Shown: one piece after another, positions 1 to 50,598 of the stretch | Layout: the number at the start of each line of letters is the position of its first letter | Numbering within the stretch: position 1 is the first letter of the stretch | Source: Cyanidioschyzon merolae | Taxonomy: Eukaryota | Strand: one strand, 5' to 3' | Assembly: GCA_000091205.1 (NCBI GenBank) | Contig: AP006490.2 | DNA length: 64,000 nt | The notes under the pieces: generated by a model | The model's input: only the letters and a program-made list of their open reading frames with translations | Told to the model about the DNA's origin: nothing | The model's database searches: none | Translations under genes and position numbers: made by a program

Positions 1-3000
1 CGTCCAAGTCGGCTGCGACCCGCCGCTGCGCTTCAGAATCCTCTTCAACTGAAGATGCCGATGCTGCTGACGTCGAAGACGATGAAGCAGAAGATGCCGG
101 TGGCTTCATCTCGCTACTCTGTGGCGCCTTGCGGGAAGCGCGTTGCATCGCCTCATGAACTCTCTGTCGTTTGGCAGAGGCTCGATGTCGACGACGACCG
201 CCAGGCGCACTGGAACCCGCGTCGTCTCGCTGCTCAAGACGCTGTGCCAAGTCCGCTTCGAGTTCAAGGGCCCATGCAGCAAGCATATCGTCCTGACCCC
301 GTCGATAACCGTGCTTCTCGGGGTTGCGCACAAAGTCTGGAATTTCGTGCTCCTCAAGCAGCGGCGGATAGTATTGCGACAGGTCTTGTAAGATGGGATC
401 GTGAGAATCGACGCCCCAGAGTCGCGCCAAGTACTCCCGATCTATCTGACAGAATATTTCGTACTCTTCATCGCTACGGGCCAGCAGACGATTGATCTCT
501 TCGAGCGTGTGAATACGCGCTCCCCGGCGTCGACCAGGATTCGCAGCAGCATCACCATCATCACCATCATCCTCATCATCTTCTTCTTCGACTTCGTTCA
601 TGGCAGACTCGCGTATTAAATGCCGTAAAAACGCTTCACGATCGCTGTCTTTTGCCTCTTGATGAAACATGCCCGCCCGAATGATTTTCTGCTCCAAGTC
701 CAGTTTCAGTTCGGCCTTGTCGAGGACGTGCTGCTCGACACTGCGCGCTGTGACGATACGCAGCACGCGTACTGCTTTCTTCTGACCGATACGATGGGCC
801 CGATCCTGGGCCTGTATATCCATCTGGGGATTCCAGTCCGAATCGAAGAGAATAACCGTGTCGGCTGTTTGGAGATTGACGCCCAAACCACCAGCCCGGG
901 TGGTCAACAGGAACACGTTGTATTTTGTACCTGGTCGGTTGAATTCCTGGACCAGCTCACGTCGCTCGTCGGCAGTGGTCAGTCCCTGCAGACGCAGGAA
1001 TGGAATATTGCGTGCTCTAAGGAGGCGCTCTTGCAAATCCATAATCCGCGTCATCTGATTGAAGATCAGGACCCTGTGGCCAGTGCGAAGGAGTTTCTGG
1101 ATACAGGAATCGAGGATTTGGAACTTGCCGGAGGCCCGCACGAGTTCGTTCACGCCGCCTTTTTCGTACTCGGGGTGGAAGAGGTACGGGTGGTTCACGA
1201 TCTTTCGCAACTGCATCTTGCTATTGCTGAGACGATCGTGGCGATGACGGCCGCTCTTGTCGGTGAACACCACGCGTTCATGACGGATTAACTGGCGATA
1301 GACGAGCCGTTGCCAAGCACTCATGTCGCAGAGAAAGAGCACTTCGCGCTTCTCCGGCAACTTTTCGCCTCCGCGAAGAATTTCGTTCTTAAGTCGTCGT
1401 AACAAGAACGGACGCAGCACCTTGTGCAGCCGGTTGATAATAAGAAGCGACTCCTCCTCGGTGAGCTCCAGATGTTCACCGGGCATCGTTGCGAACGGCG
1501 CATTGAACCAAGCCTCGAATGTGTCACAGGAGGAGAAAATCTGCGGCAGCAGGAAATTCAGCAGGGACCACAGTTCGGAAAGTGAATTGTGCAGCGGCGT
1601 TCCGGTTAAGAGCAACCTATTTCGTGAACGATACTTTTGACCCAGCACTTGGGCAAGTTTGCTCGCAGCGTTTTTGATGCGATGACCCTCGTCGACAATG
1701 ATATAAGACCAGATGATTTTGGAGAGGGCGGCTCGAGCGCGCAGTGCATACTCGTACGTTGTGAGCAGGATATGGAACGGAAAGCGCCCCGATGCGTCGC
1801 GCACGAAAAGCTCATTCGCTAGACGTCGTCGAGCGGTTCGATCGCCCTTGAAAACCGACACCTTGAGTGAAGGTGCCCAATGCGCCAGCTCGCTCTCCCA
1901 GTTGCTCACCGTCGAGAGCGGGACAACGATCAAAAAGGGGCCCTCATCCTGCTTGAACTCGATGAGATGACACAGAAGCGCAATGGTTTGAACAGTTTTG
2001 CCGAGGCCCATTTCGTCCGCAAGAACGCCATTCAAACGATTGTTGTACAGCGAGAGCAACCATTCGACCCCAACCAACTGGTAGTGTTTCAGCTCGCCAC
2101 CAGTTAGGAGCGAAGACTGATTCAGCACACGTTCTCGAACGCGATGCGCAAGTTCGTAGTAGCTATCAGCGGCTCGCTGGCCGGCCATGCTCGACGACGA
2201 CAACGACAACGACGACGCAGGGTCAGCAGCATCCGCTGCACGATCCGTCAAAACAGAACGATTCTCGCTTACAATGGCTCCGAGCTGCCGCAAATAGTCG
2301 TCGGTTTGTTCCAGAATCAATTTCAATCGTTCATTCTTTGTATTCTGCACCAGTGCACGATACGCCTCTTCGTTGTTCTCGCGAAGCGCCTGAATCCGTC
2401 GCCGTTCCTCTTCGCGTTCGCGTCGTTGATCAGACCTTTCGCGTTCCTCAAAAAAGCGGTGAATCTCGCGATTCAAACGTAGACGATTCCTCGTTTTCTC
2501 TTCCCGAAAGAACGCACGGAATGACGTTGCGTATTCTTCAACCGCTCGCCACATGGAGAGCGTGTGACGGCGTTGCTCGCGCTCGTCTGCTTCGCGAGCC
2601 CGTCGTTCCTCGCGTTCATAGCGGGCCAGCTCGCTGCGTATCCGTTTTTTCGAGAGACGGCCATGGCTACTGGCATTCGATCCGCGTGCTTCGGTACCTG
2701 CTTCGAGAATACGCTCCCGAATTCGCTGCTGGAGGCGGAGCAAGCGAAGCATGGCATGGCGTATCCGCACGTGCACATAGGTGCGCACCAGATGTTCGGG
2801 AATTGGGGCTGCGTCTTGTGTATACGCTGCCCGGAATTCACTTTCCAGGGCATGCAAAATGGTATCCAGCGCTCGTCGTGCTTCATTGAGGCGATGATGA
2901 ACTTCTCGGTCGCGCTCTCTGCATACCAGAATCGGATCGAGCGGGGGTGGTCGCGAGAGCTCGACTCCCTGTGCATTCATCACCTTGCCAACGGGTAGCC

Positions 3001-3866
3001 ATCGTTCTCCGGAGCATTGCGCACACACCTGCTCCGTATACTGCGCCTCTGATGATGCAAGGGCGGCCTCAGCTGCGTAAAGCTCTTCCCATTTCGGAAA
3101 TTCGCTCTGACATTGCTGTTCGATTTCGGTCATAACCTGTAAGCATTCTTCTGTGGAAGGCATCCGGGTGCCGTCCGGGAAGCGTCCACAAATCAGTCCG
3201 GTTACCATCGCCCGACGGAGTACGGCTGGTAGTACAGCGCCTGTTCGACGGAACACAGCACGAGGATGCCTTCCAGCGGCGGTGGCAGCTCGAGCTGCAG
3301 CCTCTGCGAGACGCAGGTAACGTTGCGCTTGTAGCTGCAGCTGAAGCGCCTTCAGCTGCGGAAAGGTAAACGCTCCATGACGCTTAACGCATGCCTGAGC
3401 CGCCAGTAAGCGCAGTACTGTTTGATAAGGCCGGTGATACTGCAAGAGCAGTTGTCGCTGATCAGGCCCCTCGTCTGCCGAAGCATGGATTGTTTTCGCG
3501 ACCTGTTCGTTCGTGGGGGGTTTCGGTACGGCGCGAACGAAAGCAGCAAGTGAAAGTAGCGCGTGAAGCTGGTCAGCGTTGAGCGGCCGCCTTCGCCACA
3601 CGACTGTGGCCTCCGACTTTCGAGAGCCGGCCGCCAGCGACAATCCGGCTTGCACTTCCTCCAGCTTCTGCGCTGGTGCAGCAGTCGTAGATTCGTCAGT
3701 CTGAAACTTAGTACTGACCTGTGGTTTCCCGTCCTCAGCGCACTCGTGATTCGTGCCTTGTTCCTGGTTCCCCAGGGGTTTCGTGGCCGGCTCCGCAGCT
3801 GCATTCGCCTGCCATACAGGTTGTACGTCCCGCTGCGAGCCAGAGCTACTTGGTGTCGCCTGCATG
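1..3866 (-). CDS. SWI2/SNF2 (Snf2/Brm-type) chromatin-remodelling ATPase, 3' end runs off the window start; the first in-frame ATG after an upstream stop is at about 3866
   Basis: Hand translation of the minus strand gives one uninterrupted frame from about 3866 down to position 1. It contains a QLQ-like segment (GAFTFPQLKALQLQLQAQRYL), an HSA-like basic region, a DEXH box (IIVDEGHRIKN), LLLTGTPLHNSLSELWSLLNFLLP, and helicase-C motifs (LLTTRAGGLGVNLQTADTVILFDSDWNPQMDIQAQDRAHRIGQKK). It is absent from the ORF track only because the stop lies outside the window. The plus-strand ORFs between 659 and 3135 are its antisense shadows. Confidence 0.85.
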
Positions 3867-4769
3867 CGACACCGTCAGCCTCGTCCACAACCTGGTTACA
3901 AGTCAATAGCCGCACAAGTCGCAATGTGATCGCCACCACCCCGCTCAATGGAAGCACAGTCAAAAGCAGAATAGCGCTCTGCGAAGACGGCAGGCACTCG
4001 TGCCGAACACTGACATGCGCTGTGCCGTCGTTGCCGCGATCGCCGTGCACTGTGATGGACACGTGTTGCCGGTGCGTCTGCGCCAGTGCACTGCTTTCTT
4101 TTCATGACAACATGGTTATATGGATCATAGATTCCAGTTTGCGGTTTGGATAATGGTAATCAAGAAAGCGTCCGTTATGATACACTTTACTTCCAAGTTC
4201 CATCTCTCATGCTTCCTCTGGGATACACTGGTCATTTCGTACGTTCTATCGTGTGCCAAGTGCCTGTCTTGCTGTACCCGTAATAGCAGATATGAAGCCG
4301 GAGCAGATGCATGACGAAGACAGAGCGGCTTTTGCTATATTACTGAGGGCATCGGAACGAGGAACGCTTGATCTGACACGGAGTCGGCGCTCATAATCAT
4401 TCTAGGAACGAGCAAGTTGTGCTGATAGCCTTACTGCCCGCAGCAGCTCGAGGCGATGGTAGAGGAGTCCACTGCGACCAGGGCGATACCCAGACGCAGC
4501 CAAACCGCCCCTGGTTCCAGAATGAATTGCGTGTCGGACGAGTTGCTGCTCAGGTCTATTCACAGCACTAGGTACTGGGAAGGTCAGGAAGCACTGGTCT
4601 GGCAGACTCGTCCGGCTCGCAGGACACGCCGCCTGGAAGGGACACGATCGACAATTCGGAAACCTGTTCCCTTTTTTAAAGTTTATCGTTGAGAGGGAGA
4701 GAAATTGTTATTTCGTTGCTACCTAGACGCTACTCTCTGTTCTTTGTTCCATATAGTGCGGTCGATACA

Positions 4770-7545
4770 CGCACCTCCATATCTGGGAGGCGTGAGAAAC
4801 GAAGCGCATCTGGCCGTTGAAGGGAAACGTGATACTAAACATGCGCGTGTTATTCTAGCGTAGAAGTTGTATTTGCGTTGAAGTCGTAGCAAAGTATAGT
4901 TTTTCAGTTAAATTGTGTTTCAACCCTCAGCTTAGTGTCTTCAAGTGATTTTCGCGGTTTATAGCAGAAGCGTTCAAGGTGCGTTCTATTTCAAAAAATA
5001 AAAAAATATGGAAAAGGATGTGGAAGATTCTGGAGCACAGGTAGCGCCGGCGGCAAGGAAAAAAAAGATAAAAAATGGCGGAGCAAAGAGGATCAGGAGA
5101 AGACGAAGAAGCTGCACGCGGGCGACAGTACGACGAGATCGTGACGAAAGCCTGTCTCTTTCAACATATCAAGGCTCCCTGCATGCAAAAGTTGCGAGAC
5201 GTCATCAGAAATTGTGTCGATTCATACCCCGGCAGTGTTCGTAACGCTTCTTTAGGACTGATGCATATTCCGAGGGAGAGATATCGCGATGTGACGGACA
5301 TCAGAACAGTTGAGGTTTCGGAAGAGTTTTTCGACAAGACCCTAATTCGTCACCTGATACTTGGCACAGGGGAAACGTCGACGAAAAATGAGCTCGTGCA
5401 TGCCCTCCACGAAAACTTCGCCGAATACGGCTGAAACTGTACTCGGTATCGGGATGACTCGCCTATTTACTGCTACGGAGCGATGAAGTGCCTCACGAAC
5501 CTGTAGAGCCACGTGATCGTGAACCTCAAACGCTTCATGGTACGCTCCGTCTTTGCACTGTACCCGGGACTGTTTCGCAAACGAATATGGGCGATTACCA
5601 ATGGAATCACGAACGATCGACAGGATGAAGATGAGATCGAATTCGTCGACAAGAAGACATCACGCAGAAGAAAGGATGAAGCTTCTGTAATCCGTGCGGC
5701 TATACAAGAGCACCGTGCGGTACTGAGGCTGGCGAATCCAGCAGACAAGATATCAGAGTTGAAAAAAGATACTGAAAGATACGAACGCATCGTCCTGTGG
5801 TATTTCGTATTTCTGGACCAAGAGCTCGAACGCAAGGCAGAGGTGAAGCTGAGTGTAGAGACAAATGAAGCGTGGGAGAGACGGAAGGCTGTCCTAATGG
5901 GGAAGCGCTTCGACGTGGTTCCAATGTGCAATAACAAGTCACATTTTGTGACTATTGACTCCACAGTCCTTCATGGCATCATGAAGGAGATCTGTCCAGA
6001 GTTCGATGCTAGCATGGAGGAGTTCTCCGGTGAAAACCGGGAGACGTACTGGAAGAATATCTTCGATTTCAAACGTCTCAAAGTGAGCAAACAAAAGGTT
6101 TTCACTGGGTTGATCGAAACCGATGGAGTAGCCTCGTGTATACACTATCGGCGGTTGAAGAAAGATCGGCCAGTTCCGCCCTCGGCTGCGCCCGTGACGA
6201 AGGATGAAGAAAACAAAGAGGAGGATCATGTGATGCAGGAGGTGGAGGATTACGATATTGTCGTTGACATGACGAAGCATGAAAAAAAGGAGGCGGCTGG
6301 TCCGGCGACTCAGGAGGTAGAGGATAACGGCTTTATCGTTGGCGCTGCGAAGCATGAAGATGAGAAGGAGGCGGATCTCACGACGCAAGTGGTGGAGAAT
6401 AACGACTTTGTCGTTGGCGCGACGAAGCAGGAAGGTGAGAAGGAGGCGGGTCCTGCGACGCAGCAGGTGCATGAGAAGCGCGTTGTCGTTGGCGCGACGA
6501 AGCATGAAGAAAAGAAGGAGGCGTATCCTGCGACGCAGAAAGTGCAAGATAACGACTTTGTCGTTGGCGCGGACCCCGGTAACACAAATGTCATAACCAT
6601 CGCTGCACCGAAGCGTGCGGAAGATGGTACTGGTGGTAACTTTTGTTAGAGAGACATGCGTCTGTTGAGGTTCTCGAGAGCGAGATACTATTGAGAATCG
6701 GGAATCATGAATGCGAGGAAGAAAATCGAGACGTGGAATGCAGGAATGAAAGATCACCTGGAAGCTTTGAGCGAGGTGACGAGCCGCGGGACGGACTTTG
6801 AAGCTTTTCGGAAATTCATGGAAGTTCGCATTGCTCACTGGGATGCGCTGTGGGAAGAATATACAAAGTCCCGCTGGGCTCGTTTGTGAATGAATTTGTA
6901 TTGTGGTAAGCGGCGGGCGTTCGCGAATTTTTTCAATGAGTTGAGCGCCCTCAAAGAGGATCAAAGTCAAGGGGTCGTAGTAGCGTATGGGGAAGGGCGC
7001 TGGGCGCCCAAGAAAGGGACTATGCCAGCTCCGACGACGAGGGTGTACAAAGAGTGCGCAAGGCGTTTCGTTACAATACCTGTAGACGAGTTCCCAACAT
7101 CGTATACACACCATGAACTGGGATGTACACTTCAGAGAGTGGAGATGGAAAAGTGCCAACGGAGCCCTGAGGAATTTGCAAAGTACGGACCGGTGACGGA
7201 GGAGCAAATGGAAAGGAGAGCGAAAGTGCGAGGATTGCTTGCATTGGTAAGTACAACGAATGACGGCAAGAAACGTATGGAGTTCGTGAACTGTAATTTT
7301 AACGCCGCAATCAGTATAAGCGGATGTGCGGTGCTGGAGGAAAGACCTCGAAAGTCCACAAGAGTGAACTTTGTTGGACAATCGCTCAAAGTAGAATTAT
7401 ATGAGACAAGATTGGAAGCAGTAGTAGGTGGCCGGTCCAATAAGACGGGGAGGCGTCTGCACGTCAGTCGAAGACTTTTCGTCCAGGGCGGGCTTCTCGC
7501 CACTACTGTACACCGCCGGCGACAACGTTTTTCTTTTGAAAGACG
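4770..7545 (+). mobile_element. TnpB/Fanzor-like element, copy A; degenerate, one frame 5075-7573 broken by five in-frame stops
   Basis: This copy aligns along its whole length with the element at 46680-49580 (left leader, coding region, and about 70 nt beyond the stop). The track ORFs 5075..5434, 5513..6649, 6707..6889 and 6890..7573 all lie in the same reading frame. They are separated only by stop codons: TGA at 5432-5434, TAG at 5504-5506, TAG at 6647-6649, TGA at 6692-6694 and TGA at 6887-6889. There are no frameshifts. RuvC-I is present ([11 protein letters not shown]). A TSxxC-like segment is present ([13 protein letters not shown]). The RuvC-III consensus is degraded, reading [11 protein letters not shown] where copy B has [11 protein letters not shown]. 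Confidence 0.7.
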
Positions 7546-7573
7546 TTTGCTGTTGCCGGTGACGGCTGCGTAA
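5075..7573 (+). pseudogene. TnpB/Fanzor-like RuvC nuclease pseudogene (copy A)
   Basis: Five premature stops in a single frame. Three lie where copy B has CAG, CGA and CGT. The RuvC-III Asp is replaced (RD to CN). Confidence 0.65.
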
Positions 7574-7637
7574 AGCTTTCAGGGAATCACAGAAGAGGGC
7601 TTGCTTTGGTGCTGTGCAACCACGTTCTAGATCGTGA

Positions 7638-9431
<1,794 letters not shown>

Positions 9432-9808
9432 AACTGAAAGGTATCGCTACGGGCCGGGGTTCGCAACGCGTCCATGGCACACGAGTTTGCCCCCACAGCA
9501 CGTCTGTCGAAGAGACGCGTTCGCAGGTTACTGTCCAAGCGCACAGATGCCGCAACTGGGGGCGCTGCCCGACACGACCGCTCGCCGCACAGCACCGAAA
9601 TGAGGGTTTGTGCGGGGTCAGCGCTCGATTGCGAGTGTGTCCCAACGCTCGTACCGCACTGGTCTACAAGTGCGTCACTCGTTCTCCTCGAGGCCGAGAC
9701 GGAAAAAGGAGTCCGAGATCATCAGTGGTCCTTGATCGTACCCAATGATCTAACCGTCTGCATCTATGTCAAAGTAACTCGTTTTGTCTCGAGGATGTTT
9801 CAAGAAGT

Positions 9809-10003
9809 TCAGAACACCTCGGGAGGCTGCTGAGTCGGCAACAGCCCAAAGCGCTTCTTCAGCGTGACCCGCTGCTTCGAGAACTTGTCATCTGGACTGA
9901 ACCGTGCCGGATGCGCCGATACAGTCGGCTCTTGGCACTTGGGACATAACTTTTGCAGTGTGTACCCGTGCTTTGGATCTTTTGAACACTTCATCAAGTA
10001 CAT
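9809..10003 (-). CDS. NOP10: H/ACA snoRNP subunit NOP10 (64 aa); the track ORF 9809..10117 carries a spurious N-terminal extension
   Basis: [56 protein letters not shown] matches NOP10 nearly residue for residue ([26 protein letters not shown]). The stop is TGA. Confidence 0.85.
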
Positions 10004-12101
10004 GGTATCGCCCAGCTGCCACGAACGATGGAGGCTAGCGCGTCCTCGTTTTGGGTAGCGCGCGTGCGCTGCGCGGCCGCGTCGACATGCGACACGCTCC
10101 TGCCACGAGTTGATCAAAAGCCTCGCTCTAGGTACCTCAAAAAGCTTTTGCGGACCGCAAGACGTGCAGCGACGCAGCGCCTGTAATCCAAGATCGATAG
10201 GCTGGAAGTCTTCAAGGAGAAGCTGAAGCCGGCAGCATGCGGCCGGTCAAAGAAAGGCCCGGAGGCGTCTCTAAGTGCGTATTCATGTACATTCAATAAC
10301 GTACCATAAACGTCAAAGGAAGGGAAGACCTTTCCATATTGTCGAAAGTTTACCGCCTAGGCGGAAGGTCCGCGAGCCGGACGAGTGTGCTGCGCTAGTG
10401 CTTTATCCTTCCTCCAGTGGCAGGTGCTGTGGCGAGACCTGCACAGCTCGTCTGCAACGCATTTCATTCTGGGACTAGACACAGTAAAGCCGCATATGGG
10501 CGTCGCCCTGGTCGCAGTGGACTCTTAGCATATCGCTTCGCGCTGTAGCAGGCAGTACGTCTGCATGTACAGCTTGCAGGCTCCCAGAATGATTACGTAC
10601 CCCGACCCCGTGTCGCATGAACCAAGCATCGAACCGACGCCCGCAGTGGTACGGAAAAGCCGTTCTGTCTCCGTGCAGCACCTGATTCAGCGGTACAAGC
10701 GCCAAGGCGGGTGTTCACGGCAGGCAGTCGGCGCACGATAGAACGTACGAAACGACCAGTATACTCGGGAGGAAGTATGGGTAATGGAACTTGATGGTAG
10801 GTGCTTCATCGTGGACGCTTTCCCGAGAGCCATGATACATTCCGAATTCTGGGATCCGTGGTCAATGTAAACGTTTTGCCATCTGAAGCAAATGGTGTTG
10901 ATTGTTCTTCCTGAGCCTACCATACCGCGCGGTACCAGGGCGCTGCACTGTAGATGCCTGAGTTTGGCTGGTGCCTCGCGAGTGGACGCGTGTAAGGTCG
11001 CTCGCTTCGCTGGTTGCCGCTCGGCATGGACTGCTACAGACGTTGCGGCAAATGGATCGATCCGGTGAAGAGCAGCGATGATCGTTGGGGATTTTGAAGA
11101 CACATCTATGATTAGAATCGTAAGGAGATAAAGCATCTGAAAAATGGCTGGGAGTATGCTCCATTCATCGATCGTGTGTGGTGGCAGGTATTTTGTGCAG
11201 CGAGGTGAGCGCGCGTCATCAGCCTAGAACTTGCACCGGGGAGCGTTCAAGTCCGATGCATTCTGAACAGAGCCGGGGGCTTGTCACCTCCGTCGGTCGA
11301 GTTATTGATGAGCACGATACGCGTAAATGCGCTGCGAATCGCCTTCGGATCCTTGCTTGACCTTCGCAGCTGCCACCAATATCCGCTCTAAGGCAAGTCC
11401 GACGCTGGCATTCCAGAAAAGCAATGCGAGCTTATTGGGCAGCGATCCTGGCCCCGCGTATCTCCTCGCGCTATGCCTGTTAGCAATCCTAGACTGGCAT
11501 TCCAGCAAAGTTTCATACATTCACTGAGTACGAGTTGGGGGCCTCGCGCATCGGTGCCTTCCCGGCATCGTAACCACTGCCACGAGAACGACAGCTGCCT
11601 TGCGCCGATGCCCGCGACGAACGTCGAAGCTGTTGCGTGTCTGTCGGAAGCTTATATTGATGTATCCAGCGCTGTGGCAAGTGTCTGGGCTAGGCTCGAA
11701 GTTCGTGGGGTCACAGAAGCGGGTGCAAATGCCAGGAGCCGTCACTGCCGTTTCTCAGCGGAGCGACTCGAACCTGCTTCCGCAAATAGCGCCCATTGCC
11801 TAGCACGGCACATCGCTACGCATGCAATCGACTGGTGAAGATGGGCCTCTCGACAGGCTATGTGCTCGCTGACGATGATTTCAGAGGCCTCGAAAAATTA
11901 GCGTTGAAGGACGACAGGGAAGCATACTTGCCTAGGGCAAGCAGCATACTGTGGATAGGGACGGAGCAACTGAATCCGTTTCTCTGGTGCATCCCGGAGA
12001 CAAGCAGGTAGGCAACCAGCCAGGCGTTTAGGTAGGTATTTAAGCAGACATGCAGAGACACATACACTCTGATGCACTCGTATCCGATTCAAATGGTACG
12101 A

Positions 12102-12868
12102 ATCCACTAACTTGGACGAAGGCAATAAAGTTTGATTCTCTTATCACTGTCATAAATACTAGCCTTCATGGACGATTTATGCGACTGCTTCGATTCACGC
12201 GCTCCTAGCTCCGGCTTTGAGTACGCTGGCCTCCCTGCCTGCCTATCCAACTCCGTTGCAAATAGTCACAGCATGTTGGTGGCAGCGTTCAATTACCGAT
12301 GCTGATGCTTCCAGATGTTTTCGACGCATTTCACGCACAGGCAGTACCCAGCATCTGCGCTTCGCTTGCCATTGTGATCTTCATTTCGTTCAGCGTCGGT
12401 GCGCCGGTCGAAGCGACGACGCTCGGCCTTGGTCAGGTGTTCCCGGACGTCGACAATGCTCCGTCTCCCGAGATCCACGCTGTGGCACATGAAGGTTCGC
12501 TTCATGATCCGGGATATGCGCATCACTGGGGCAGAGGACGCTGCTCGATGCCCCGCCTCGTTACCTAACTCGGTGCATCACCGACATAGGATTACCGGCT
12601 TCATCTGAGCGACCCGTCGATGGTTTGGCGTCGCCATTCTACGGAGGATTTCTGGAACACGATGATTTGCATGACGGAACGAGTACCGGACGGCAGTCCA
12701 GGTTGGGTACGAAATTTCCAGAGATTCCGATCCTTCTGGGCATTGCTGGAGCACAGCGGATATGCCGTCGCGAGTCTACACGAATGCTGCAACGACTCAA
12801 GTGTGGTCCTTGTACCCTTTGCCACGGAAACCGAAGAGACGGCATCCTCTTGGTGCATATCCTGTGAC
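12102..12868. repeat. Dispersed direct repeat, copy 1 (about 766 bp, non-coding)
   Basis: About 99% identical to 15808-16572. It begins at atccactaacttggacgaaggcaataaag and ends at ggtgcatatcctgtg. The internal ORFs are duplicated and have no recognisable protein features. Confidence 0.9.
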
Positions 12869-13669
12869 AGGTAACCTGTGGATGCTGTCGGATGTCGCCA
12901 CATGGGTTGCCACGAAATGAGCAGGGATTTATACATCGAACCGAACCGATCACGTGACGTGGCAAGTGGAGCAAACTTCTGGCTTGAGCATACCCCCCAA
13001 TTCGTGAACGACGGACGTCGAGGTTTTTCTCTTCGCCGGCCCAGCTGCGGGAATACCTGCGCCCACGACTTGCCTCGAAATAGAAAGAACGAAACCATGG
13101 AGAATGCCTCATTGGGGCATGAAACACGTAACGATAGGAAAAGAGTCCAGGCCTGCACGTATGTACTGGATCGTGGTATCCATTGCTTGGCGAACGCGTG
13201 TTCAAAGCAGTCGGGAATCATCTTGATTCCGGTGACGTAAAGAGTTCCAGCGGCGCAACATCGAAGCAGCCGTTCGCAAATGAACACCGAGCGTCCCTGA
13301 TTTACACATAGGAATCCCTAAGCCCCTACTGTCGTCGTTCCAGTATCGATACTACACAACGAAACAAAAAGTGCGGCAAATATCGCGAGGCACAACCTGG
13401 GCAAGCAGTTCCGGGCACGTTCGGCATCGGATACGTGTGTCCACCCTCTAATAGAGACATTTATGAACATTAGAGACATGAAACGGAACGCCACGCGCCC
13501 GGCGCATTCGAACGCGCGAATCTGCGTCAGCGGCGCACGCGCATCGCACACAGCCGTTGCGCATGGCGGTGTGCGCTGGCCTGGTGCAGCGGCATCGTGA
13601 ACGCCTGCTTCCATACGCTATCGGGCGCTGGACGCTCCTGCCCACTACAGGGACGCTGGACTGTAACTC

Positions 13670-14914
13670 ATGGGACTCTCGACGATAGATGCCGACGTTC
13701 TTCGGTCGTACACGGAGGTTGTCGAAGCAGCAGCGCCGGCAAGCGAACGAAAGGCCGGATTTCTGGTTCAACAGCACGGGGCGCTCGGTGATGGCGGAGA
13801 CGCTTCGCAACCCGCTGGTGGCGCCACTGAGGCTGGCGCTGCCAACAGCGAGGGCGACGCAGGCTCCAACGTTGACATGTTTTATTTCGAGCACGCGCTA
13901 GCGACAGCGATATCCAGCCAGCAGCAACACAGCGCTGGCGGCGGTGGCGGTGGCGGTGGCGCCCCAGACCCGTCTACGGTGCATACCACTGGCTCTGCGA
14001 CCACAACTGAAGGCGTGTCAAACCTCACCAGGCTTGTAGTCGAGGAACAAAAGACACTCGATCTTTTCCACAAACTCAAGTTTAACTGGCTCGAACTGCA
14101 GACAAAACAGTACTTCCTCGAGGTTCTTCTAGGCTGCCCCAAGGGCGTGACACCGAACGATCTTTGTCCATCGGACGCCGCCATTGCCGAACTTGAAATA
14201 TCATCTGCTCAAGCGAAGCAGGAGCTCAAAAAAATCAAGCAGCAGACGAAAAATTTGCACGAACAAATGGAATCACTCTGCACAGAGCTGGCTCGAGCCC
14301 ACGGGATATACCTAGCGTCGTTCAACGAATGCAGAACGGCCGTTGAGGATCTCTGCGCTCGCGTTCAGGAGCGAGCGTATCGAGATCAACTTGTCGAGCG
14401 TGATGCAGAATTAGCGTCACTGCGGCAGCAGGAAGCTGAGATGCTCGCCAAAAAAGCCAAGCTCGAGTGGGAGACGCGACCCCTCGAACAGAGCATCGAT
14501 GCATTGCGAGAAGAAATCGCAGCTACCGAGACGCGACTTGAAAGTGGTAATTCAGCGAGCGAAAAAGAGCCAGACGCCGCATTGCGAGCGCGCTACCAGG
14601 CCATGGTTGCGTGGTATCAAGCCATGATCCCATTGCTCGAGTCTATATCTGGCATTCGAATCGAGCGCTTTGAGACTGATCGCCTAGTGATCAGCATGGA
14701 ACACGCTGTTTCCGACCAAAAACAACAGGCCGTGCTCGATCTCATTCCCGGTTCGTGCTTGATATCTCGGATCACGTTGGAACCGCCACCGTCGCCAACA
14801 AGTGGACTCGACGCCGCCGAAATAGAGACACTTCTTCGCCGTGCGAACGAAACGAACGACATGGGCTGGTTGATTCGCACCCTTCAACAACGACTCTACT
14901 TGTGCGCCCGCTAG
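13670..14914 (+). CDS. Hypothetical coiled-coil protein (Gly-rich N-terminus, long heptad-rich central region)
   Basis: 414-aa ORF. The coiled-coil-like segment reads LEISSAQAKQELKKIKQQTKNLHEQMESLCTELA...LRQQEAEMLAKKAKLEWETRPLEQSIDALREEIAATETRLES. No diagnostic family motif. Confidence 0.45.
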   Translation: MGLSTIDADVLRSYTEVVEAAAPASERKAGFLVQQHGALGDGGDASQPAGGATEAGAANSEGDAGSNVDMFYFEHALATAISSQQQHSAGGGGGGGGAPDPSTVHTTGSATTTEGVSNLTRLVVEEQKTLDLFHKLKFNWLELQTKQYFLEVLLGCPKGVTPNDLCPSDAAIAELEISSAQAKQELKKIKQQTKNLHEQMESLCTELARAHGIYLASFNECRTAVEDLCARVQERAYRDQLVERDAELASLRQQEAEMLAKKAKLEWETRPLEQSIDALREEIAATETRLESGNSASEKEPDAALRARYQAMVAWYQAMIPLLESISGIRIERFETDRLVISMEHAVSDQKQQAVLDLIPGSCLISRITLEPPPSPTSGLDAAEIETLLRRANETNDMGWLIRTLQQRLYLCAR

Positions 14915-15453: not shown

Positions 15454-15807
15454 GAAGCAGCGCCAAAACCAGTGTGCGCGCTCTCTCCCTGTTGAGGACG
15501 CTTTGGGTACGCGGTGCTTGACACACCCTCCAGGGAGCGATGCGCCGCGGCTCTGCTGAAACTTGAGTACGCTCCGTAGCCGACCGTGTGCCTGAGCCTA
15601 AACGGCCACGTTAAGTGCTTCCCCTTGTGAGAGAGTAGCCGTTGTCGGCAACTCAGAACGCCCTAGAGCCACACGAGACTAGCCAGTGGGGTTCACGAAC
15701 GTCGTCGAGACGGTTGCGGCGGCGTTGCCGGTGACGCGTGCAGCCTTGCCGCGGAGCGCACCTGCGGCGTAACACACACCGATGTGAGCAAGTGCCATAA
15801 AACGGAT

Positions 15808-16572
15808 CCACTAACTTGGACGAAGGCAATAAAGTTTGATTCTCTTATCACTGTCATAAATACTAGCCTTCATGGACGATTTATGCGACTGCTTCGATTC
15901 ACGCGCTCCTAGCTCCGGCTTTGAGTACGCTGGCCTCCCTGCCTGCCTATCCAACTCCGTTGCAAATAGTCACAGCATGTTGGTGGCAGCGTTCAATTAC
16001 CGATGCTGATGCTTCCAGATGTTTTCGACGCATTTCACGCACAGGCAGTACCCAGCATCTGCGCTTCGCTTGCCATTGTGATCTTCATTTCGTTCAGCGT
16101 CGGTGCGCCGGTCGAAACGATGACGCTCGGCCTTGGTCAGGTGTTCCCGGACGTCGACAATGCTCCGTCTCCCGAGATCCACGCTGTGGCACATGAAGGT
16201 TCGCTTCATGATCCGGGATATGCGCATCACTGGGGCAGAGGACGCTGCTCGATGCCCCGCCTCGTTACCTAACTCGGTGCATCACCGACATAGGATTACC
16301 GGCTTCATCTGAGCGACCCGTCGATGGTTTGGCGTTGCCATTCTACGGAGGATTTCTGGAACACGATGATTTGCATGACGGAACGAGTACCGGACGGCAG
16401 TCCAGGTTGGGTACGAAATTTCCAGAGATTCCGATCCTTCTGGGCATTGCTGGAGCACAGCGGATATGCCGTCGCGAGTCTACGCGAATGCTGCAACGAC
16501 TCAAGTGTGGTCCTTGTACCCTTTGCCACGGAAACCGAAGAGACGGCATCCTCTTGGTGCATATCCTGTGGC
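15808..16572. repeat. Dispersed direct repeat, copy 2
   Basis: See copy 1. Same orientation, 3.7 kb downstream. The two copies bracket the coiled-coil gene and the V-ATPase G gene. Confidence 0.9.
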
Positions 16573-16749
16573 AGATGCGCACGCCGCGCAACGGCGATAC
16601 CGCGGCTACTGTAAGCTGTCACTGCGCTAGAGTGCAGCTCGCAGGAGCTTCTGGGGAACGCTGTGCGTCGCTTTTTCCCATGATCAAGTCGTTTTCGTAG
16701 TGGTTCCTCGACTAAGAATAGGCTGCATCTAGCGAGAACGCTCTCTAGG

Positions 16750-18606: not shown

Positions 18607-18785
18607 CGGCTGCTGGGCACCCTGGATCATGAGGTCGCGTTCGAGTGGTAGCGCATTGACGCTGCTCAAGTCCGTGGCGCTCAACATGGACGATAATGGG
18701 AGCACCCTGGATCATGAGGTCGCGTTCGGGTGCCAGCTCATTGACGCAGCTCAAGCCCGTGGCGCTCAACATGGACGATGATGAC
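18607..18785. repeat. Tandem repeat, about 93-bp unit x2
   Basis: caccctggatcatgaggtcgcgttcg(a/g)gtg..cattgacgc.gctcaag.ccgtggcgctcaacatggacgat occurs twice in tandem, with a degenerate third echo near 18890-18925. Confidence 0.7.
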
Positions 18786-29254: not shown

Positions 29255-29740
29255 GCGTCCACGATCGTAGTCGTCTTTTAACTTTATTCTATTCCACGTT
29301 CAAGTGAGTGTAAACAGATGCTTTTCGCAGTTTATAGCGGATACATACAAAGTGCGTTCAAGTTCATAAACATATCCTCATCTTGCGGACCATCGGGCGA
29401 AGAATAGCAATTGACGAAGAAGAAGACGGGAGATACACGAGAAAAGGTATTCGCCTAACGGGACATGGCTGAGATTGTAGTGGCACAATGGGCACGAGTT
29501 CTGGCAATCCTTGCAATGATCAGTTGCGCCAAAGGCGAAAAACGCATGGAGTTCGTGAAGTGAGACTTCAACGCCGCCATCAATAGCAGACGATGTGCGA
29601 TACTGAAGACGAGACCAGAGGAGCTGACGCAATCATACCTCATGGGGCAGTCTCTCAAGCTCGAAGTCTAAAAGGAGAATCTGGAACCTATAGCGAGGGG
29701 CCGGTCAAACAAGGCTGGCAGACGTGTGCGCGTGGGTATT
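29255..29740 (+). mobile_element. Internally deleted (MITE-like) derivative of the TnpB/Fanzor-like element, copy C
   Basis: About 200 bp homologous to the 5' leader and N-terminal coding start of copies A and B (ttcaagtga...cgcagtttatagc.ga...gcgttcaag). This joins directly to about 270 bp of the 3' end: KRMEFVK*DFNAAINSRRCAILKTRPEELTQSYLMGQSLKLEV*KENLEPIARGRSNKAGRRVRV, compared with [66 protein letters not shown] in copy B. Confidence 0.7.
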
Positions 29741-42693: not shown

Positions 42694-43305
42694 CTATGTT
42701 CACCACTTAAGTTGGCTGCAGGCGTGCAACCAGGGGATTTTGCCTGCTTTTCACGGTTTGCTCGGGAGCAGATAACAGCGCGAATGCCGAAGCGAACAAC
42801 GTTACGTCAGCGCAGCAAACCCGTTTCGCCACAATATCGTGTACATGAATATCCACCCGCAGACGTGTCTCAGCCTTTTCTTACAGGGTTCTGGTATCGG
42901 TTTCAGTTTCTCCATATACACTCCGACGCTGTGAGGCTGCCCAACAAAGTTAGCTTGCCGCAGCGCTGCGTGCCTCGCATTCAGCACAAGCATCTCCTGA
43001 TATTGATACCAGCGTTGAGGTCTCGGTTCATGGACTCCATGCGTTTGTTGCCGCTGGTTGATCTCACCAATGATAGGAGACCAGAACTCGTGTACGCTGT
43101 GCCATTGGGTGCTCTGTCAGCTCTTCGTGCTGATTTGTCGACGAAATGCTCCGCTGGCCTCGCTCCAACTCAACGTCCTAGGGTGTATATTCCAGCTCAT
43201 CCCTTCGATTTTTCGAAAATGAACGCATTTGCTTATAGCCTGAGATGAGAACCTTCCCGCATCGAGCAGCACATGCGGAATAAAGACCAAATGTGCCCCG
43301 GTTGG

Positions 43306-46679: not shown

Positions 46680-49580
46680 TGCGCGTGCACGCGCACCTGG
46701 CAGATCCGGCGGGCACGAGACACGACGCTCTGGTCGCTCCTGAGGGGAACAGTGATCCTGATCATTGGCGTGCTATTCTACTGTAAAAGTTGTATTCGCG
46801 TTGAGGTCGTAGCAAAGTATAGGTTTTCTGTTCCATCCTATTCCGACCCTCAATTGAGTATATTCAAGTGTTTTTTCGAAGTAAATAACAGAAGCGTTCA
46901 AAGAGCGTTCGTTTTCATAAAAAATTAAAAGGAAAGGCATGGAAATGGAAGTGGAGGATCCCGGAGGGCCGATATCGCCGGCTCTCGGAAAAGAAGGATA
47001 AACATGGCGGAGCAAAGAGGAACAGGAAGTGATGAAGAATCAAAAGGGGGCGAGGTTCTACGTCGAAGGCGGCAAGAAAGGCAACTGTACGGCGATATTG
47101 TAGTGAAAGCCTGTGTTCTTAAATATATCAAGGATCCGTAGAAGGAAAAGTTGCCGGACGCCATCAAAAACCGTCTCGAGTCGTACTCCATGAGTATGAT
47201 AAAGGCTTCTTCAGGACCGACGCATTTGGTGAGGGAGATGTATCGCTACGTGACGAACATGGAAACGGTCGAGATTCCGGACGAGTTTTTCGACAACACA
47301 TTTTTTCGTCACTTGATGCTTGGCACAGGGGAAGAGCGGAAGGATATAAGAGCTAGTGCATGCCCCTCACGAACAACATCCCTTTTGCAGGTTCGAGGGT
47401 AATCGAAACAAGGGGGACTGGGGTATTTACGACTATGGGGCGATGAAGTACATCACGAACCTGAAGAACCATTTGAAAACGAACCTCGAACGTTTCATGA
47501 TACGCGCCGTGTTTGCACTCTACCGGGGCCTGTCTCGCAAAGGAATATGGGCGATTATCAATGGCATCACGAACGATCGAAACTATGGAAATGAGGTCGA
47601 ATTCGTTGACAAGAAGGAGTCAAACCAGAGCACGAATGAGAATTCCGTCATCCGTGCGGTTATCGAAGAGCATCGTGCGGTACTGGGGCTGGCGAATCCA
47701 ACAGACAAGATATCAGAGTTGAAAAAAGATAGGGAAAGATACGATCGCCTCGTTCTGCGCTATTTTGTGTTTCTGGACCGAGAGCTCGAACGCAAAGCGG
47801 AGATGAAGCTGAGTGAAGAGACAAATGAAGAGTGGGAGAGACGGAAGGCTTTCCTAATGGGTAAGCGCTTCGACGTGGTTCCAATGTGCAAGATCAAGTC
47901 ACATTTTATGACTATCGACTCCGGCGTCCTTTACGGCATCATGAGGGAGATCTGTCCGGAGTTCGATGTAAGGAAGACAGAGTTCCCCGGTGAAAACCGT
48001 GAGACGTACTGGAAGAATATCTTCGATTTCAAACGTCGCAAAGTCAGCAAACAAAAGGTATTCACTGGGTTGATCGAAACCGAAAGAGTAGCCTTGTGTA
48101 TACACTATCGGAGGTTGAAGAAAGATCGGCCAGTCCCTCCCTCGGCTGCGTCCGTCACGAAAAATGAAGAAAAGGAGGAGGCTGGTCCTGCGAAGCAGGA
48201 GGTAGAGGATAACGACCTTGTCGTTCACGCGGCGAAGAATGAAGAAAAGAAGGAGGCGGGTCCTGCGACGCAGGAAGTGGAGGGTAACGACCTTGTCGTT
48301 GACGTGACGAAGGATGAAGAAAAGAAGGATGCGGATCCTGCGACGCAGGAGGTAGAGAATAACAGCTTCATCGTTAACGCGACGAAGCATGAAGAAAAGA
48401 AGGAGGCGGGTCCTGCGATGCAGGAGGTGCATGAGAAGGACCTTCTCGTTGGCGCGGCGAAGGATGAAGATGAGAAGGATGCGGATCCTGCGACGCAGGA
48501 GGTAGAGAATAACGACTTTATGGTTGACGTGACGAAGCATGAAGAAAATGAGGATGCGGGTCCTGCGACCCAGAAAGTGCAAGATAACGACTTTGTCGTT
48601 GGCGCGGACCCTGGGAATACGAATATCATCACCATTGCAGCACCGAAGCGTGCGGAAGATCGTACTGACGGCAACTTGCGTCAGAAAGACATGCGTCTTT
48701 TGAGGTTCTCGAGAGCGAGATACTATCGAGAATCGGGAATCATGAATGCGAGGAAGAAAATCGAGACTTGGAATTCAGGAATGAAAGAGCACCTGGAAGC
48801 TGTGAGCGAGGTAACGAGCCGAGGAGCGGACTTTGAAGCTTTTCGGAAATTCATGGAAGTTCGTGTTGCGCATTGGGATGCTCTGTGGGAGGAGTATACC
48901 AAGCCCCGGTGGGCTCGACTGCGTATGAATCTATACGGTGGGAGGCAGCGCGCATTCCCAAATTTTTTCAATCAGTTGAGTGCCCTGAAGGAGGATGAAA
49001 GTCAGAGGCTCGTAGTAGCGTACGCAGCAGGGCGCTGGAAGACCCAAAAAGGGACTACTCCGGCCCCAACGACAAGAACGTTCAAGGAGTGCGCAAGGCG
49101 TTTCGTTACGATACCTGTAGATGAGTTCCGAACGTCGTATACGCACCATGAACTGGGGTGTACACTCCAGAGGGTGGAGATGGAAAAGTGCCAGCGGAGC
49201 CCTGAGGACACAGCAAAGCACGGACTGCTGACGGAGGAGCAAATGGAAAGGATGGCAAAAGTTCGTGGACTGCTTGCATTAGTGAGTACAACCAGTGATG
49301 GTAAGAAACGTATGGAATTCGTGAACCGTGACTTTAACGCCGCTATCAATATACGGAAATGTGCGGTGCTGGAGAAGAGACCTCCAGAATTGACAGGAGA
49401 GAATTTCGTTGGACAACCTCTCAAAGTCGAACTATATGAGAAAAAGTTGGAGGCAGTTGTAGGCGGCCGGTCGAGAAAGGCTGGGAGGCGTCTGCACGTC
49501 AGGTAAAGAGTTTTGTCTAAGGCGCCGGTCGTCTCAACTGTACACTGGCACCATCGCCGGTGCATTCGACAGATGGTGTC
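46680..49580 (+). mobile_element. TnpB/Fanzor-like element, copy B; most intact copy
   Basis: The left leader is homologous to copy A from about 46680. An N-terminal ORF (ATG about 46994 to TAA 47402) contains one in-frame TAG and then a 1-nt insertion relative to copy A. That insertion shifts into the main 716-aa ORF 47356..49506 (GTG start as listed). A conserved non-coding tail of about 70 nt follows the stop. Confidence 0.75.
47356..49506 (+). CDS. TnpB/Fanzor-like RuvC-fold nuclease (IS605 OrfB superfamily), core ORF of copy B
   Basis: RuvC-I: [18 protein letters not shown]. TSxxC-like: [15 protein letters not shown]. RuvC-III hallmark: [21 protein letters not shown] (RDxNAAxNI). There are six to seven 26-aa tandem repeat units ([22 protein letters not shown]) immediately N-terminal to RuvC-I. 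Confidence 0.75.
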
Positions 49581-49824: not shown

Positions 49825-50598
49825 ATGGCGCGTGGCCCAAAGAAGCATCTGAAGCGCCTGGCAGCGCCAAGGCACTGGATGCTCGCTAAACTTGGCGGCA
49901 TCTGGGCCCCTCGACCTTCAGCTGGCCCACATAAGCTTCGAGAATGTTTACCTCTGATCATCATTCTGCGAAACCGGTTGAAGTACGCGCTCACTGGGCG
50001 AGAGGCTATGCAGATCCTCATGCAGCGGCTGGTTCGTGTGGACGGGAAAGTTCGCACAGACCGCACTTTTCCCGCTGGCTTCATGGATGTTATCCATATC
50101 GAAAAAACCAATGAGACATTTCGTTTACTCTACGACACAAAGGGGCGTTTTGTGCTCCATCGAATCACACCCGAGGAGGGCAAGTACAAACTGTGCCGCA
50201 TCAAGCGTCAACAACTGGGTGCCCGTGGCATCCCGTACATCGTGACACACGACGGGCGCACCATTCGGTATCCAGATCCATTGATCAAAGTGCACGACAC
50301 CGTCGTCCTTGATATCGAGACCGGGAAGATCACGGACTTTGTCAAATTCGACATCGGCGCGCTCTGCATGATCACCGGAGGCCACAATATTGGTCGCGTT
50401 GGTGTCGTACAGCACCGCGAGAGACACCCGGGTGCGACTGAAATTGTGCACTTGAAGGACGCTGCAGGGCGAGAGTTTGCGACACAGATCAGTAACGTGT
50501 TCGTTATTGGTCGAGAAAAGTCGCTCGTCTCGCTACCGCGTGGCAAGGGAGTGAAGCTCTCCGTCGTTGAGGAGCGCGAGCGGCGAGGCCTGCTCTAG
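49825..50598 (+). CDS. RPS4: 40S ribosomal protein S4 (eS4)
   Basis: [61 protein letters not shown]... is collinear with eS4 throughout. The stop is TAG. Confidence 0.95.

Follow-up and report, generated by a model that had tools for sequence, protein, structure and literature searches.

A 64-kb window of Cyanidioschyzon merolae nuclear DNA with probable old and degraded copies of CMe-1A, a repeat family encoding Fanzor1

Introduction

In a 64,000-nucleotide window of Cyanidioschyzon merolae DNA (contig AP006490.2; "the window" denotes the whole stretch analyzed), two open reading frames (ORFs), at 6890-7573 and 47356-49506, end in motifs of the RuvC-III type, raising the question of which kind of element they belong to and whether any copy of it could still make a working protein. 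A reading made from the letters of the window alone (the sequence-only reading) had proposed a TnpB/Fanzor-type RuvC nuclease carried on a multicopy element, with three related copies (A, B, and C), and had seen in them a recently active or proliferated family. Fanzors were demonstrated as RNA-guided nucleases in 2023.

The analysis reported here indicates that the window is very probably nuclear C. merolae DNA and that the elements are old, decayed copies of CMe-1A, a Fanzor1-encoding repeat family published in 2013. That publication already covered the family together with its placement in Fanzor1, its copy number, and its age, and the finding is thus known rather than new.

Results

Bao and Jurka (2013, Mob DNA 4:12; PMC3627910) reported one Fanzor1 family in C. 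merolae, CMe-1A, comprising approximately 150 copies, each approximately 80% identical to a consensus of 3169 bp. The family was described as having no terminal inverted repeats (TIRs), with its target-site duplication undetermined and its class stated as unknown. Its 5′ 635 bp are identical to a separate repeat, TE-N2_CMe, and its Fanzor1 protein, CMe-1, has 734 amino acids; some copies were reported to encode intact proteins still, coding capacity having been long retained. Here, the consensus DNA and the CMe-1 protein were taken from the supplementary files of that study, and the consensus was mapped on the window by blastn, which identified five elements at identities ranging from 69 to 90%. 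Copy A corresponds to consensus 3-3169 (window 4104-7545, plus strand, 82-87% identity) and copy B to consensus 658-3137 (46689-49545, plus strand, 84-90%). A solo TE-N2_CMe-like copy matches consensus 2-581 (10302-10883, minus strand, 83%), copy C matches consensus 810-889 and 2889-3088 (29292-29370 and 29534-29733, plus strand, 72-75%), and fragment D, an old 3′ fragment, matches consensus 2737-3032 (42907-43200, minus strand, 69%). Copies A and B, lying in the C. merolae genome, show the approximately 80% identity to the 3169-bp consensus that characterizes CMe-1A. In addition, identity between the translated 716-codon ORF of copy B (ORF B) and the published CMe-1 reaches 91% across the C-terminal 324 amino acids, which make up the RuvC half, and 76% across the N-terminal 292 amino acids. 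Because the consensus maps on the window copies and ORF B resembles CMe-1, the elements were equated with the published CMe-1A family.

The genomic setting of these elements is that of the red alga itself. The RPS4 gene at 49825-50598, encoding 40S ribosomal protein S4, is residue-for-residue identical in translation to the protein of C. merolae 10D (BAM79871.1 / XP_005536157.1), and the other flanking genes, encoding ATP synthase beta, a WD40 protein, a Sos7-like protein, and Vps35, are ordinary nuclear genes.

The relationship of the encoded protein to Fanzor1 was established by a profile built from distant relatives. Searches of PDB sequences, by phmmer with the published CMe-1 and with a shallow profile of near-identical copies, returned nothing meaningful, and precomputed annotation consisted of a weak DUF8286 alone. 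Exhaustive searching by HMMER, for which the profile of the family served as query, collected 2298 representative proteins at E <= 1e-3, including 336 at E <= 1e-30, and 46 of these relatives, 24-41% identical to ORF B, constitute the clade alignment. Run against the PDB, the profile of these 46 relatives matched exactly three distinct sequences, all of them Fanzor1 proteins: Parasitella 9cf0 (E 2.4e-21), Spizellomyces 8gkh (E 2e-17), and Guillardia 9cer (E 1e-11). These alignments span both the pre-RuvC and the RuvC parts; the N-terminal region of approximately 270 amino acids, in which the sequence-only reading recognized no motif, aligns with the pre-RuvC N-terminal part of the solved Fanzor1 proteins.

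The predicted fold led to the same place. A usable AlphaFold (AF2) model of ORF B was obtained only with the diverse alignment (predicted local distance difference test, pLDDT, 72.5; predicted template modeling score, pTM, 0.69), the shallow alignment of near-identical copies giving a pLDDT of 35.7. In a Foldseek search with this model, the seven top matches were all Fanzor1 structures (E 1e-10 to 2e-7; template modeling score 0.40-0.57), followed by Cas12o1, ISDra2 TnpB (8h1j), and other Cas12 proteins. Profile and Foldseek comparisons therefore both tie the family protein, in overall homology and in fold, to the Fanzor1 proteins of known structure. The proposal of a TnpB/Fanzor-type RuvC nuclease on a multicopy element is thus borne out by profile, by fold, and by the published family, and the profile and structure searches of the 716-amino-acid ORF, on which that proposal might have foundered, both placed it in Fanzor1.

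At the residue level, the positions invariant across the 46-member clade include D418 and G420 of the DPG motif, E590 of VDEF, and R658, D659, N661, A663, and N665 of RDxNAAxNI. Both the DPG motif and a RuvC-II glutamate displaced toward the C terminus are published signatures of Fanzors. The RuvC-I aspartate in its DPG context is present in both large window copies as GADPGNTN, at 6566-6589 in copy A and 48601-48624 in copy B, as had been noticed earlier; the assignment of this motif to both of the ORFs named above is correct for ORF B, whereas in copy A it sits in another ORF piece, at 5513-6649. The shifted RuvC-II glutamate is found in VDEF(R/P)TS, approximately six residues before the zinc-finger position, and the canonical RuvC-II position is occupied by an inert residue in the strand LVVAY(G/A)AGRW. 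In profile alignments, DEFRTS is matched to the DEFRTS/DEYKTS of solved Fanzor1 proteins, e.g., 8gkh and 9cf0. The RuvC-III motif RDxNAAxNI is intact in copy B (49321-49353) and inactivated in copy A (7286-7318), both ORFs ending in these motifs as originally described. The family protein is accordingly a eukaryotic TnpB homologue of the Fanzor1 type, with the Fanzor catalytic arrangement composed of the DPG aspartate, the DEFRTS glutamate, and the RDxNAAxNI aspartate.

Copy A is a full-length CMe-1A element (4104-7545, plus strand, delimited by blastn with the consensus; orthologous filled site, L078). The sequence-only reading had given 4770-7545 for it, correctly as to the 3′ end; on the consensus, the element begins at 4104, and 4770 is merely where similarity between A and B starts. 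The 5′ module (4104-4766, plus strand) is equivalent to TE-N2_CMe (consensus 1 to approximately 650) and shares 72% identity with the solo copy (10303-10793). Downstream lies a decayed Fanzor1 reading frame (5075-7573, plus strand), which tblastn aligns with ORF B in a single frame at 72% identity over 715 residues (E = 0), far beyond chance; at the DNA level, A and B are 81-83% identical over approximately 2.7 kb. The frame is interrupted by in-frame stops at 5432, 5504, 6647, 6692, and 6887 and carries a frameshift near its start; its own stop codon has been lost, and the catalytic RD of RuvC-III has changed to CN. Since it contains five in-frame stops and the RD to CN change, copy A is a dead pseudogene, unable to make the nuclease. 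Stop-codon reassignment was considered as the cause of these stops and dropped, since neighboring genes read normally and copy B has sense codons at the same places. The remaining motifs of copy A can nevertheless be followed on the plus strand: RuvC-I, with the DPG signature of Fanzors, at 6566-6589; the shifted RuvC-II glutamate with the TS motif, the zinc-finger cysteines being replaced, at 7082-7114 (from profile alignments); and the inactivated RuvC-III at 7286-7318. Directly upstream of RuvC-I, Tandem Repeats Finder (TRF) delineated five units of a 75-bp (25-amino-acid) tandem repeat (6196-6571, plus strand), where the published consensus gives four further unit matches of 74-76 bp by blastn.

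An imperfect direct repeat of 19/20 nucleotides, TGTTGCCGGTG(A)CG(T/G)CTGCG, flanks copy A, its 5′ copy at 4064-4082 and its 3′ copy at 7551-7570 (both plus strand, found by local alignment); none of 2000 shuffles reached its score. A flanking duplication was sought at copy B, copy C, the solo module, and nine other full-length loci, and none was found, leaving copy A as the sole case, and a similar TG-rich motif sits 5′ of an unrelated copy. The repeat is not called a target-site duplication.

Copy B (46689-49580, plus strand; orthologous filled site, L005) is a core-only CMe-1 element, extending from consensus 658 to the end, and its locus is also occupied in metagenome loci L001-L004. Its 716-amino-acid ORF (47356-49506, plus strand) encodes an N-terminally truncated Fanzor1 in which D418, E590, and D659 are intact. 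A stop and a frameshift (47100-47400) precede its GTG start and remove approximately 140 N-terminal residues of the family protein. In copy B, TRF found six units of the 75-bp repeat (48157-48606, plus strand). The number of units varies among metagenome copies as well, and the 25-amino-acid repeat stretch of ORF B, directly before RuvC-I, is disordered in the AlphaFold model. An intact homologue of 627 amino acids from ENA (P0044), 36% identical, lacks the acidic repeat.

The smaller elements are remnants. Copy C (29292-29733, plus strand) is an internally deleted old fragment, identified by tblastn and consensus mapping, in which a stop codon replaces the RuvC-III arginine; the tblastn match covers 82 residues (29492-29734, E 9e-20), so that the copy reported earlier at 29255-29740 is real, though a small and decayed fragment. 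The three copies originally recognized are all genuine; fragment D, which was found by tblastn and consensus mapping and falls in three frames, and the solo 5′ module had been missed. In the solo module, similarity to the consensus stops near position 590, within a predicted hairpin.

The divergence among copies indicates an old family. Copies A and B differ with a synonymous divergence (dS) of 0.57, and the ratio of nonsynonymous to synonymous divergence (dN/dS) in the RuvC half is 0.12-0.17 when copies are compared with one another and with the consensus, demonstrating purifying selection during the spread of the family. Such low ratios agree with the long-retained coding capacity noted by Bao and Jurka (PMC3627910) and point to selection on past master copies and not to recent activity. 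Because copies differ by 17-30%, the family is judged to be old and not recently active. Of the earlier alternatives, "proliferated" holds, with approximately 150 copies reported, whereas "recently active" does not, the copies being this divergent and rich in stops.

The 3′ noncoding tail of copy A (7487-7550, plus strand) includes the conserved motif ACTACTGTACAC at 7502-7513 and, at 7524-7547, a 10-bp hairpin at its terminus, and is a candidate for the end of an omega-RNA scaffold, the right end of the transposon, or both. Over 47 copies, the 12-nucleotide motif ACTACTGTACAC is 92.5% conserved, compared with 87-90% for coding columns and 72-74% for neighboring noncoding columns. The terminal hairpin, present in most copies, comes in two versions, AACGTTTTTC-TTTT-GAAAGRCGTT and CGTCGTTCGA-CTT-TCGAACGGCG; copy A has the first and copy B a decayed form of the second, from which it follows that copy B is not 3′-truncated. 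The 250-nucleotide 3′ region has a folding z-score of -3.1, and an Rfam search of 3900-11100 returned no match. A hairpin around ACTACTGTACAC was also considered and rejected, its arms pairing over only 3-8 bp and inconsistently.

The arrangement upstream is modular. A core, from consensus position approximately 648 to the end and with a small hairpin at its start, was found behind at least four different conserved 5′ sequences (loci L006-L083), namely TE-N2 in direct orientation, TE-N2 inverted, a module of approximately 450 bp, and one of approximately 1 kb; a further class of related loci retains only consensus position approximately 2093 to the end. Because the core follows several different 5′ modules, the published 3169-bp consensus looks composite. 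No transposase-like ORF was found in the 5′ modules of related loci, the ORFs antisense to A and B are devoid of domains, and neither element has a second ORF with a recognizable domain; CMe-1A encodes no transposase.

Two repeats elsewhere in the window were recorded as separate observations. Two 773-bp direct repeats (12098-12870 and 15802-16574), which are 99.2% identical and separated by 3.7 kb, lie on either side of an ORF (13670-14914) that has a Sos7 kinetochore domain and could represent a recent segmental duplication or long terminal repeat-like repeats. A short tandem duplication of approximately 82-85 bp, with 91% identity, lies at 18617-18783.

Discussion

From its homology to Fanzor1 enzymes that have been solved and tested, intact CMe-1 would be expected to act as an RNA-guided nuclease. 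The intact ancestor would have bound an RNA (omega-RNA/fRNA) transcribed from its element's own 3′ end, as tested Fanzor1 enzymes do, and would have cut DNA matching the guide beside a short adjacent motif, with an active site presumably formed by D418, E590, and D659.

Several observations weigh against such a nuclease-encoding Fanzor1 family. The first concerns the zinc finger. Bao and Jurka (PMC3627910) defined a strictly conserved C4 zinc finger, [TS][TS]-x-x-C4, between RuvC-II and RuvC-III. In the segment earlier read as "TSxxC," the TS is indeed present and no CxxC pair follows, so that the C4 zinc finger of Fanzor1 is lacking. The cysteine pairs are likewise absent from 43 of the 46 clade members, the exceptions being P0169, which keeps two pairs, and P0055 and P0061, with one each. 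Because the finger is missing from nearly the whole clade, it is not certain that this subclade is competent as a nuclease, and the loss of the finger casts doubt on the mechanism set out above. For the algal Fanzor1 CrFNuc-1, Jiang et al. detected no cleavage. Moreover, the window proteins had no direct hmmscan match in Pfam or NCBIfam, and PF07282 matched weakly in just 7 of the 46 relatives. RNAalifold on 47 3′ ends recovered only a 4-bp GGCG/CGCC stem without covariation. Finally, among 80 related loci from hot-spring-type metagenomes of the Joint Genome Institute (JGI), a single one (L008) has a long ORF, of 722 amino acids from an internal Met, and most are broken. CMe-1A was nonetheless placed in Fanzor1 by its describers (PMC3627910) regardless of the missing zinc finger. 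Between E590 and R658, the clade retains a conserved RGLLWCxST motif despite the loss of the C4 cysteines.

Three other explanations were weighed against that of old, decayed CMe-1A copies. It seems improbable that copy B or close siblings elsewhere in the genome still work, the 716-amino-acid ORF being expressed from an internal start as an RNA-guided nuclease in an active family. Such activity would be consistent with 716 open codons and an intact catalytic triad, with the dN/dS of 0.12 for copy B against the consensus, with the intact proteins that some copies still encode according to Bao and Jurka (PMC3627910), and with the conservation of ORF B at the matching locus of metagenome contigs L001 and L002. 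However, the stop and frameshift leave ORF B with a GTG start and without approximately 140 N-terminal residues, including the basic N-terminus, its 3′ tail is decayed in both the conserved motif and the hairpin, and loci L003 and L004 have shorter ORFs at the same site. The low ratio against the consensus, for its part, mostly reflects selection on ancestral master copies rather than on copy B. A second possibility, which we regard as likewise improbable, is that the clade represents a Fanzor1 derivative in which both the zinc finger and DNA cleavage have been lost, acting instead as an RNA-guided DNA binder or in some other non-nuclease role, as some TnpB derivatives do. The cysteine losses in 43 of 46 members and the lack of in vitro cleavage by CrFNuc-1 would fit such a protein; invariance of the three catalytic residues in all 46 would be unexpected if catalysis had been abandoned, and the multicopy, decaying pattern fits a mobile element and not a domesticated gene.

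The remaining explanation, insertion of prokaryotic IS200/IS605 or IS607 TnpB elements or bacterial contamination, is exceedingly improbable. RDxNAAxNI is common to TnpB, and TnpB 8h1j is a weak fold match (E 5e-3), yet Fanzor1 proteins are the best matches by profile and fold by many orders of magnitude, and no OrfB_IS605 or OrfB_Zn_ribbon match was obtained in Pfam or NCBIfam. In addition, the genes on either side belong to the C. merolae nuclear genome, and no TnpA-like or other domain-bearing ORF lies within A or B. Assignment to old CMe-1A copies is retained.

Beyond this assignment, a more speculative and rather unlikely extension may be considered, in which the CMe-1 clade would be a zinc-finger-less, catalytically competent Fanzor1 lineage of a thermoacidophilic alga. 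Its guide RNA would end in ACTACTGTACAC plus the terminal hairpin, and the movement of its core of approximately 2.5 kb, with hairpins near both ends, no TIRs, and several exchangeable 5′ modules, would depend on machinery acting in trans. If this were true, the published 3169-bp consensus would be a composite of TE-N2_CMe and the core.

As a discovery, the finding carries little weight, the family having been published in 2013; the motif-based call of the sequence-only reading, made from the letters alone, proved sound. A heat-tolerant eukaryotic Fanzor could be of interest to genome engineers, but the window copies are broken.

Among known systems, bacterial TnpB (ISDra2, 8h1j) and Cas12 proteins share with CMe-1 the RuvC fold and an RDxNAAxNI-type RuvC-III and appear as distant fold matches (E 3e-3 to 0.1). 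TnpB differs in having the canonical RuvC-II glutamate, usually a D-hydrophobic-G rather than a DPG motif, and a C4 zinc ribbon, and is accompanied by TnpA, whereas CMe-1 gives no Pfam OrfB match. The solved Fanzor1 proteins SpuFz1 (8gkh), PpFz (9cf0/9cf1), and GtFz (9cer) are the best profile and fold matches and have in common with CMe-1 the aspartate of DPG, a shifted RuvC-II glutamate within DE[FY]xTS, and the C-terminal RD/NRx. Sequence identity to CMe-1 is merely 11-14%, and CMe-1, unlike them, lacks the zinc-finger cysteines and has the disordered 25-amino-acid repeat insert before RuvC-I.

Among algal elements, Chlamydomonas CRe-1/2/3, in which Fanzor1 is carried by non-autonomous Helitron2, and Volvox VCa-1 resemble CMe-1A in being present in many copies without a transposase of their own; VCa-1 is 25% identical to ORF B over 217 residues (E 2e-9), and the CRe elements were reported to have hairpins at both ends (Bao and Jurka, PMC3627910). 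They differ from CMe-1A, in which no Helitron-type termini or asymmetric TIRs were recognized. The published CMe-1A differs from the window and related copies in three respects: its consensus matches a single segment of approximately 75 bp where the window copies have five to six units of the 75-bp coding repeat, conserved sequence runs approximately 10-14 nucleotides past both consensus ends, and in many related copies the core lacks TE-N2 or follows other 5′ modules. The family is the same: copy A is covered by the consensus over its whole length, TIRs are absent from both, and the 5′ module is TE-N2_CMe.

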